Numbered from the stretch's first letter, positions 34,073 to 35,320 are shown. The stretch: 64,000 bases of DNA from Alphaproteobacteria bacterium (GCA_050485485.1 JBJHBM010000005.1:11877-75876), one strand, 5' to 3'. Notes: generated by a model from the sequence alone, not told the origin. Numbers and translations: made by a program.

Positions 34073-35320
34073 ATGAAGGTTTTAGACGTTACCGATTCGT
34101 GGCGCGACGGAACCGCCACGGTGCGGGTGAGGCTTCGCCCCTTGCGCGCGGGCGGCGAGCTGGAGCTGTGGTTCCGCTTCGACGGTCTGGACGCCCCGCT
34201 CGAGGGGATCGCGCCGGCGCTGACGGTCGCGCTCACGGTGCCTGCCATGCACGAGGGCGAGCCAGTCGAAATTCCCGCCAGCCTGCCGGCGCCGCTCGTT
34301 GCCAATATCGCCAAGGCCCAGCAAGTGCTCGCGAGCTGGTACCGGGACCTGACGCCGGTGCCGGTCAGCGCGGCGCGCATCGAGCCGGGGCCCGTCATTA
34401 GCCCCGCCGCGGATTCCAACGGGGGACGTAGCGTGGCGTGCTGCTTCTCGGGCGGGGTCGACTCTTGGTACTCGCTCCTCAATCACCGGGCGCGCATCGA
34501 GCGCCTCCTGCTGGTGCGCGGCTTCGACATCGGCCTTTCCAACGATCTCTTGTGGGACCGGACCGTGCAGCGCGCGGCGCGCGTGGCCGACGGGTTCGGC
34601 GTCGGGCTCGTCACCTGCGCGACCAACCTGCGCGACGTCCTCGACAAGAGCCGTACTACCTGGGGCCGGCGCTTCGCGGGAGATTTCTGGGGTGGCTACC
34701 TGCACGGCGCGGCGCTCGCCGCCATCGGCCTGATGATGCGTCGCACGACAGGAGAGCTGATCGTTCCGGCGACCCACTCCTACGCCCAAATCAGGCCGTG
34801 GGGCTCCTCGCCGCTGCTCGATCCGCTGTGGTCGGACGGGCACGTCTCCGTCACCCATGACGGCTGCGAGGCCGATCGCGTGGGCAAGGTCCGCGCCATC
34901 TCCGATTCGGCGCTGGCGCTCGCTACGCTGCGCGTGTGCCATCACGACACCGGCGAGTTCAACTGCGGGCATTGCGAGAAGTGCCTCCGCACCATGATGG
35001 CGCTGCGCGCCTGCGGCGCGCTCGTGCGGGCCGAGACGTTCCCGCACCATCTGCCCGCACGCGACATCCATTCGCTTGTCGTGCCGCCCCACGTGCGCCA
35101 TCACTACGAGGCACTGCAGGTGGAAGCCTACCGGGTCGGCGACGTCGAGCTCGCCCGTGCGGCGGAAGTGGTGCTGAACCAGCGGATGTCGCTGCGCCAG
35201 ACGCTGGCGCGCGCGAAACGGGCATTGCGCGGCAGCGCGCTCGGGCGGGGCTTGCGCGGTCTTGTGCAGCCGCGTCCGTCCGCGGCCTCCGTATCATTGA
35301 CAGCGCACGCGAGGCGTTGA
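34073..35320 (+). CDS. QueC-like PP-loop ATPase (N-type ATP pyrophosphatase) with ~140-aa N-terminal domain of unknown function; possible sugar amidotransferase
   Basis: PP-loop CCFSGGVDSWYSLL at residue ~145; C-terminal zinc-finger-like NCGHCEKCLRT resembling the QueC GCGHCAAC motif. Confidence 0.6.
   Translation: MKVLDVTDSWRDGTATVRVRLRPLRAGGELELWFRFDGLDAPLEGIAPALTVALTVPAMHEGEPVEIPASLPAPLVANIAKAQQVLASWYRDLTPVPVSAARIEPGPVISPAADSNGGRSVACCFSGGVDSWYSLLNHRARIERLLLVRGFDIGLSNDLLWDRTVQRAARVADGFGVGLVTCATNLRDVLDKSRTTWGRRFAGDFWGGYLHGAALAAIGLMMRRTTGELIVPATHSYAQIRPWGSSPLLDPLWSDGHVSVTHDGCEADRVGKVRAISDSALALATLRVCHHDTGEFNCGHCEKCLRTMMALRACGALVRAETFPHHLPARDIHSLVVPPHVRHHYEALQVEAYRVGDVELARAAEVVLNQRMSLRQTLARAKRALRGSALGRGLRGLVQPRPSAASVSLTAHARR

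Follow-up and report, generated by a model that had tools for sequence, protein, structure and literature searches.

What is the product of the 415-residue open reading frame (ORF) at positions 34,073 to 35,320 of a 64,000-nucleotide (nt) stretch of an Alphaproteobacteria bacterium genome (GCA_050485485.1 JBJHBM010000005.1:11877-75876; hereafter, the window)? A first-pass annotation made from the sequence alone described it as a QueC-like PP-loop protein with an extra N-terminal domain, located outside a queuosine context and possibly serving as a WbpG/PseA-type amidotransferase. Here, we found that the protein belongs to a large unannotated three-domain family with a strong and previously unnoted linkage to pyruvyl transferase and ATP-grasp genes, and it is probably a PP-loop enzyme of surface-glycan modification. 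The earlier annotation was right in kind, namely a QueC-related PP-loop enzyme in a polysaccharide pathway, and wrong in the specific family it proposed.

A large unannotated family of three-domain proteins

The ORF is real and its start is correctly called. An identical protein with the same coordinates and the same two flanking genes is present in a public assembly. The reading frame opens, from stop to stop, at 33977 and offers no start codon before the ATG at 34073, which is directly preceded by a GAGG-like Shine-Dalgarno sequence. Homologues with 44–61% identity could be aligned from residue 1, and AlphaFold predicted the structure with high confidence for both the full-length protein (mean predicted local distance difference test (pLDDT) score, 90.8) and the N-terminal region modelled alone (95.1). 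Therefore, the start is secure, and the mis-called start that had been raised as a caveat was excluded. Neither a signal peptide nor a membrane segment was visible in the sequence or in the AlphaFold model.

In the AlphaFold model, a Rossmann-like PP-loop domain is flanked by an N-terminal α/β domain and a C-terminal helical bundle (Table 1). The extra N-terminal domain was thus confirmed, but it consists of approximately 105 residues followed by a low-confidence linker (pLDDT 58 at residues 111–120) rather than of 140 residues. It showed no significant structural match, and when used alone as a profile query it retrieved only four short proteins and revealed no other architecture. In the second domain, SGGxDS follows the first strand of a Rossmann-like α/β core, as in the PP-loop superfamily; the loop had been correctly recognized, although it lies at residues 126–131 and not near residue 145. 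F125, V129, D130, and S131 were invariant in an alignment of 31 sequences, and FSGGVDS or conservative variants were kept in approximately 100 of the 104 family ORFs from 85 loci. The QueC-like motif NCGHCEKCLRT was located at residues 297–307. C289, C298, C301, and C304 were all invariant in the same alignment and retained in almost all of the 104 ORFs. This motif had been regarded as a C-terminal tail, but approximately 110 residues lie downstream of it; because approximately 90 of these form a helical domain, the motif is not a tail. The predicted helices of this domain (residues 329–333, 339–355, 358–367, 374–387, and 389–397) were moderately conserved, and the final 14 or so residues of the protein were disordered. 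In addition, the family possesses the specific motifs TNxR, HGAALA, WGSxPxLDPLWS, and HDG...R..K.

Full-length homologues numbered 288; all were named hypothetical and none carried a Pfam domain. Among 1.84 billion cluster representatives (clusters at 50% identity), a profile search detected 9,542 with E ≤ 1e-3, of which 4,533 had E ≤ 1e-30. Most were 360–430 amino acids (aa) long and spanned all three domains, and the source-given names of the family members were likewise all "hypothetical protein". Members were distributed among Alphaproteobacteria, Gammaproteobacteria, Desulfobacterota, Acidobacteriota, Actinomycetota, Chloroflexota, Cyanobacteria, Planctomycetota, Verrucomicrobiota, and phyla of the candidate phyla radiation (CPR), and among Bathyarchaeia and haloarchaea in Archaea; Priestia plasmids were also among the matches. 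A literature search found nothing relevant on the family, DUF6395, ATPgrasp_ST, or QueC-like proteins associated with polysaccharide or pyruvyl transferase.

Linkage to pyruvyl transferase and ATP-grasp genes

The genomic context was investigated in 85 non-redundant loci from many phyla, in which neighbors were identified by hidden Markov model (HMM) searches of all ORFs and representatives were confirmed with Pfam. Genes for polysaccharide pyruvyl transferase and for glycosyltransferases (GT) of families GT2 and GT4 recurred near the family, and AsnB-like genes were found in a smaller number of loci (Table 1). Genes for Wzm/Wzt-type ATP-binding cassette (ABC) transporters and sugar-nucleotide dehydratases were also recurrent. 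The suggested link to cell-surface polysaccharide loci was therefore borne out by the neighbors across loci. The pattern also held in annotated genomes from cultured species. On p4 of Azospirillum brasilense, a pyruvyl transferase gene followed by a family member forms an isolated two-gene module, and in Gloeothece PCC 7822 the order GT1-GT4-GT-pyruvyl transferase-member is found on one strand. A plasmid of Gemmobacter aquarius carries, beside extracellular polysaccharide (EPS) genes, a pyruvyl transferase gene adjoining a member, an ATP-grasp gene, and a FemAB-like GNAT gene, in this order. In Halorientalis, the member lies beside a PylC-like ATP-grasp gene and sugar oxidoreductase genes. Furthermore, the family domain was fused to PS_pyruv_trans in two proteins (P0124 and P0163) and to GT2 in one (P0125).

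The ATP-grasp partners represented three or more sub-families (ATPgrasp_ST, PylC-like, and generic), which makes a functional link more plausible than an inherited one. Wherever ATPgrasp_ST was found, i.e., in five of five loci (the window, L002, L005, L010, and L011), it was located immediately 3' of the family member on the same strand; in the window, its ATG starts 2 nt past the stop codon of the 415-aa protein. Close orthologues of the Wzx-type flippase encoded divergently upstream (E 1e-145 to 1e-224) were found near the family member in L002, L005, L006, L010, L011, and L012. Hence, an alphaproteobacterial subclade keeps a module of the flippase, the family member, and ATPgrasp_ST.

Table 1 Features of the 415-aa protein, its neighbors in the window, and recurrent features of family loci.
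Feature	Position or occurrence	Strand	Remarks
Gene of the 415-aa protein	34073..35320	+	Member of the unannotated QueC-related PP-loop family
N-terminal domain, approximately residues 1–105	34073..34387	+	Topology β-β-β-α-β-α-β
PP-loop ATP-pyrophosphatase (adenine nucleotide α-hydrolase) domain, approximately residues 118–315	34424..35017	+	
PP-loop motif S126-G-G-V-D-S131, after invariant F125	34448..34465	+	Alignment, family ORFs
Putative zinc site C289-x8-C298-x2-C301-x2-C304, within LRVC...NCGHCEKCLRT	34937..34993	+	Conservation, QueC alignment
C-terminal helical domain, approximately residues 316–400 (approximately 90 aa)	35018..35272	+	AlphaFold (AF2) helices; not in QueC
ATPgrasp_ST (PF14397) ligase, 400 aa	35323..36525	+	Pfam E 5e-41; public gene call agrees
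Wzx-type flippase (Polysacc_synt_3), 507 aa in the public call	32330..33853	-	Pfam E 4e-76; divergent from the gene of the 415-aa protein
Polysaccharide pyruvyl transferase (PF04230)	≤7 kb in 38/85 loci; ≤300 bp in 21/85		
GT2	≤7 kb in 33/85 loci; ≤300 bp in 12/85		
GT4	≤7 kb in 32/85 loci; ≤300 bp in 9/85		
AsnB-like	≤7 kb in 10/85 loci; ≤300 bp in 7/85		
Tandem arrays of two to four paralogues or tandem-fused double-domain proteins	L048 (Okeania sp.) 1767-7452; L082 9947-13779		
Further loci with tandem paralogues or tandem fusions	L013, L019, L027, L035, L045, L052, L058, L066, L068, L069, L074, L083, L087		

Relation to QueC and other PP-loop enzymes

The two best structural matches of the protein were QueC and Cap9. 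For comparison at the sequence level, a QueC profile of nine sequences (Escherichia coli QueC and viral homologues) was aligned with the protein by local hhalign. The catalytic core was collinear across 192 columns: FSGGVDS paired with FSGGQDS, GFDiG with tFDYGQ, and LRVC...NCGHCEKC with TCY...GCGHCAAC, the FD-G motif being located after β2. The four cysteines of the protein paired one-to-one with those of E. coli QueC, and their arrangement near the C-terminal end of the catalytic domain (C-x8-C-x2-C-x2-C) was that of the QueC zinc cysteines. The QueC motifs VPGRN and YPDCRDEF were absent from the aligned region, where HGAALA, PATH, and WGSxPxLDPLWS were found instead. From the collinear core, the matching cysteines, and the missing motifs, we therefore regard the protein as a very divergent offshoot of the QueC branch and not as a QueC.

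Profile and fold searches gave weak support for this distant kinship. A Pfam scan of the protein gave nothing at E ≤ 10, including PF06508, the QueC profile proposed earlier as a check, and DUF6395; an NCBIfam scan left TIGR03573 unmatched and gave only TIGR01536 (AsnB) in the PP-loop region, at E 0.19. Foldseek against the PDB found no match with E below 0.02, and the structural margin of QueC over sulfur-transferring PP-loop enzymes was small. The hhalign probabilities obtained with the QueC profile were also low, 7.7–16% (7.7% for the 192-column alignment, with a pairwise E of 0.0045). The first-pass annotation had named a lack of PP-loop or QueC profile hits as a reason to abandon its reading, and with the curated profiles no such hit was indeed obtained. 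Despite these missing matches, the predicted structure and the conserved motifs uphold the assignment as a QueC-like PP-loop protein. Other searches were uninformative: phmmer and hmmsearch against PDB sequences gave spurious coiled-coil or designed-protein matches only, and the hhalign alignment with E. coli QueC alone did not extend beyond the PP-loop (probability 9.8%).

Compared with known systems, the protein resembles QueC (PF06508; PDB 3bl5) in fold, PP-loop, and four-Cys motif, but its identity is approximately 12% and it is below every Pfam threshold. QueC lacks both the 105-aa N-terminal domain and the 90-aa C-terminal helical domain, and it is found with queD/E/F, whereas the family is found with polysaccharide genes. 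The placement outside a queuosine context agreed with our data. No que gene was present among the Pfam-annotated neighbors at approximately 21.7–44.4 kb, the rest of the window not having been checked for queD, queE, or queF; a self-built QueC HMM detected no canonical QueC anywhere in the window; and queD, queE, queF, and tgt were absent from the eight related loci with Pfam gene tables. Cap9/QatC (type IV of the cyclic-oligonucleotide-based antiphage signaling system, CBASS, and Qat defense; PDB 9nto) likewise re-uses the QueC scaffold, but differs from the protein in architecture; the neighbors here are a flippase and an ATP-grasp ligase instead of defense-system genes, and a PADLOC scan of the protein gave nothing at E ≤ 1. 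Sub-threshold matches to DUF6395 (PF19932) were obtained for 15 of 31 members, spanning the Cys motif and the helices after it. The gathering cut-off of 25 bits was never reached, the best score being 22.9 bits in a paralogue, and DUF6395 is itself uncharacterized. The polysaccharide-associated ATP-grasp amidoligases (e.g., the C-terminal domain of Cj1438, TupA-like) and AsnB-like uronamide-forming amidotransferases share with the proposed activity the ATP-dependent activation of a sugar carboxylate, which is then turned into an amide during capsule or O-antigen synthesis (PMC11800379). They have other folds and another mode of activation (acyl-phosphate for ATP-grasp), and are partners of the family, not homologues.

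Proposed function and its alternatives

At the expense of ATP, QueC turns a carboxylate into an amide and the amide into a nitrile. By analogy, our tentative proposal, to which we give somewhat less than even chances, is that the protein is a soluble, cytoplasmic enzyme of a hitherto undescribed QueC-branch family and acts on acidic, often pyruvylated glycan precursors by carboxylate adenylation and amide formation. The use of ATP, the carboxylate as substrate, the formation of an amide, and the sequence of steps are all inferred, as follows. The SGGVDS loop would bind ATP, and the enzyme would adenylate a carboxylate on an acidic sugar of a nucleotide-linked or undecaprenyl-linked glycan precursor. 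In most lineages, this carboxylate is likely that of the pyruvate ketal introduced by the neighboring or fused pyruvyl transferase, and otherwise maybe that of a uronic acid. Ammonia or an amine would then capture the acyl-adenylate to yield an amide, as in the first half-reaction of QueC. The four-Cys motif may form a structural zinc site as in QueC, and the N- and C-terminal domains, together with the TNxR, HGAALA, WGSxPxLDPLWS, and HDG...R..K motifs, may build the glycan-binding site. The ATP-grasp, FemAB-like GNAT, and AsnB-like partners would add or extend amide-linked substituents, and the modification would take place on the cytoplasmic side ahead of Wzx- or ABC-transporter-dependent export. 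In the window, the gene appears to be translationally coupled to that of ATPgrasp_ST, which probably adds or extends the amide-linked substituent, and the dedicated Wzx flippase would export the modified unit. Such chemistry has a precedent in the Campylobacter jejuni capsule, where glucuronic acid becomes amidated at its C6 carboxylate through the TupA-like ATP-grasp domain of Cj1438 (PMC11800379).

The location of the family beside sugar-pyruvylating and amide-forming enzymes in bacteria and archaea probably reflects a so far undescribed decoration of cell-surface polysaccharides. We can extend this to a speculative proposal, rather doubtful in its full breadth, that the family is a widespread glycan-tailoring class converting the carboxylate of pyruvate ketals or other acidic sugars into an amide, substituted amide, or nitrile, and acting as homo- or hetero-dimers of paralogues, often with ATP-grasp ligases; such a change is so far unreported for any polysaccharide structure. 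Several observations speak against a role on pyruvylated glycans. The 38/85 and 21/85 counts for pyruvyl transferase are raw, without a background rate near unrelated polysaccharide genes. In L001 and L008, the family member is alone with no glycan genes nearby, and with the HMMs used no pyruvyl transferase or glycosyltransferase was found in the window. In addition, we know of no amidated pyruvate ketal described in a natural polysaccharide.

The function put forward in the first-pass annotation was that of an N-acetyl sugar amidotransferase (WbpG/PseA type; TIGR03573), in which an N-acetyl group is converted to acetamidino with ammonia from a partner glutaminase. The TIGR03573 enzymes (WbpG, PseA, and LfnA/WbuX; PDB 8wex) do share with the protein a PP-loop and a place in surface-polysaccharide loci. 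However, the protein fails to match the profile and its closest structural similarity is not to a solved member of this group, and the linkage and fusion to pyruvyl transferase and the operonic ATP-grasp genes favor carboxylate modification over acetamidino formation, which leaves this function distinctly improbable. We also judge it improbable that the protein is a sulfur or heteroatom transferase like ThiI, LarE, or TtuA, which would use an Fe-S cluster or a Cys sulfur donor to produce a thio-modified sugar or cofactor, even though the structural ranking separates such enzymes little from QueC. The three-Cys cluster sites of TtuA and LarE leave one iron free, whereas four Cys ligands would provide no open iron site; the spacing and position of the cysteines are exactly those of the QueC zinc site, and no sulfur-carrier or cysteine desulfurase gene was recurrent near the family. 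A divergent true QueC or a deazapurine enzyme of the Cap9/QatC type, engaged in preQ0 synthesis or in ligation of 7-deazaguanine to a macromolecule, would explain the top two structural matches and the common Cys motif, but is extremely improbable. With PF06508, whose cut-off is 22 bits, the protein scored 0 bits and its relatives no more than 21, matching just the Cys motif; VPGRN and YPDCRDEF are missing; there was no QatC or Cap9 match in PADLOC and no que, CBASS, or Qat gene among the inspected neighbors; and QueC has no counterpart of the additional terminal domains.

A further alternative concerns the substrate. The enzyme could instead use a non-glycan carboxylate, for example that of a peptidoglycan or lipid precursor, or a soluble nucleotide sugar; the pyruvyl transferase linkage would then reflect only shared envelope islands. 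MOP-family flippases also export lipid II, and AsnB-like amidotransferases are known to amidate peptidoglycan as well as uronic acids. The window and its close relative L005, which have a flippase and ATP-grasp only, with neither GT nor pyruvyl transferase, and the seven loci with adjacent AsnB-like genes are compatible with such a substrate. Against it, the PS_pyruv_trans and GT2 fusions put the family domain on the same polypeptides as glycan enzymes, and isolated two-gene modules of pyruvyl transferase and a family member exist. Hence, we consider a substrate of this type unlikely, and an acidic glycan precursor remains our preferred one.

The negative charge of bacterial surface polysaccharides, which comes from pyruvate ketals and uronic acids, governs how S-layers are anchored, how metals are bound, the rheology of biofilms, and recognition by phages and the immune system. 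If the proposed function is true, a chemical edit that is common from Proteobacteria to haloarchaea and CPR bacteria, yet has escaped structural glycobiology, would neutralize or functionalize the charge of capsules, EPS, O-antigens, and archaeal and CPR surface glycans. It would also be a reaction type new to the QueC branch of PP-loop enzymes. Neither Pfam nor NCBIfam has a model for the family, and its definition would improve the annotation of polysaccharide loci. Cultivable carriers, namely Azospirillum brasilense, Gloeothece PCC 7822, and Gemmobacter aquarius, together with the Priestia plasmid matches, make the hypothesis directly testable. The members concerned are WP_247896056 (gene D3869_RS27265) in A. 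brasilense, WP_013334578 (gene CYAN7822_RS29240) in Gloeothece, and WP_108437386 in Gemmobacter.

Paralogues and unusual family loci

At least two tandem paralogues were found in 13 of the 85 loci, and double-domain proteins produced by tandem fusion also exist, for example P0121 (719 aa) and an ORF of 832 aa in L082. In one recurrent subtype of paralogues, FSGGVDS is replaced by LSGGVDG and LRVC by MQPCH, and the PP-loop of one copy is degenerate (FAPDVDG). Judging from their sequences, these subtypes with altered PP-loops suggest that tandem paralogues form hetero-oligomers with a non-catalytic subunit. Two other members, P0230 (662 aa) and P0194 (679 aa), carry unexpected C-terminal fusions, one to a class A β-lactamase-like domain (Beta-lactamase2, E 3e-36) and one to an S-adenosylmethionine methyltransferase.

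In Gemmobacter aquarius (L105), the FemAB-like GNAT gene (Acetyltransf_6, E 7e-22) is located at 11338-12369 (+), directly after the member and ATP-grasp genes, and this operon holds three distinct potential amide-bond-forming enzymes adjoining the pyruvyl transferase. L001 (Shumkonia mesophila) has a weak ATP-grasp-like ORF at 8870-10084 (+) (phmmer E 5e-6), where relatives have ATPgrasp_ST. It is overlapped by an oppositely called 256-aa gene without a Pfam match and may be a decayed ATP-grasp gene.

Other features of the window

A Dph6/DUF71-type PP-loop enzyme (Diphthami_syn_2, E 4e-24) is encoded at 31564-32271 (-), directly downstream of the flippase gene and in the same orientation; a 4HBT thioesterase gene (31083-31751) comes next. 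In eukaryotes and archaea, the Dph6/DUF71 family carries out a carboxylate amidation, the conversion of diphthine to diphthamide. The possibility that the Dph6-like PP-loop, thioesterase, methyltransferase, Sel1, and PCMT (protein-L-isoaspartate O-methyltransferase) neighbors belong to the system was rejected, as none of them recurs in related loci. Downstream, the region 38579-40901 (+) holds the PCMT gene and then a TolC-like outer-membrane efflux gene, and a valyl-tRNA synthetase gene comes next at 41535-44363; these are ordinary housekeeping genes marking the end of the glycan-related module.

The intergenic region between the flippase gene and that of the 415-aa protein contains a perfect 21-nt inverted repeat, CAGTGACCAGACTGTGACCGG / CCGGTCACAGTCTGGTCACTG, at 33922-33942 and 33979-33999 with a 36-nt spacer. 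A conserved operator was rejected, as four related loci lack the repeat in the corresponding region. The repeat is unique in the window, its folding energy was -75.8 kcal/mol (z -6.4), and possible interpretations are an operator, an insulating hairpin, and the remnant of a small mobile element.
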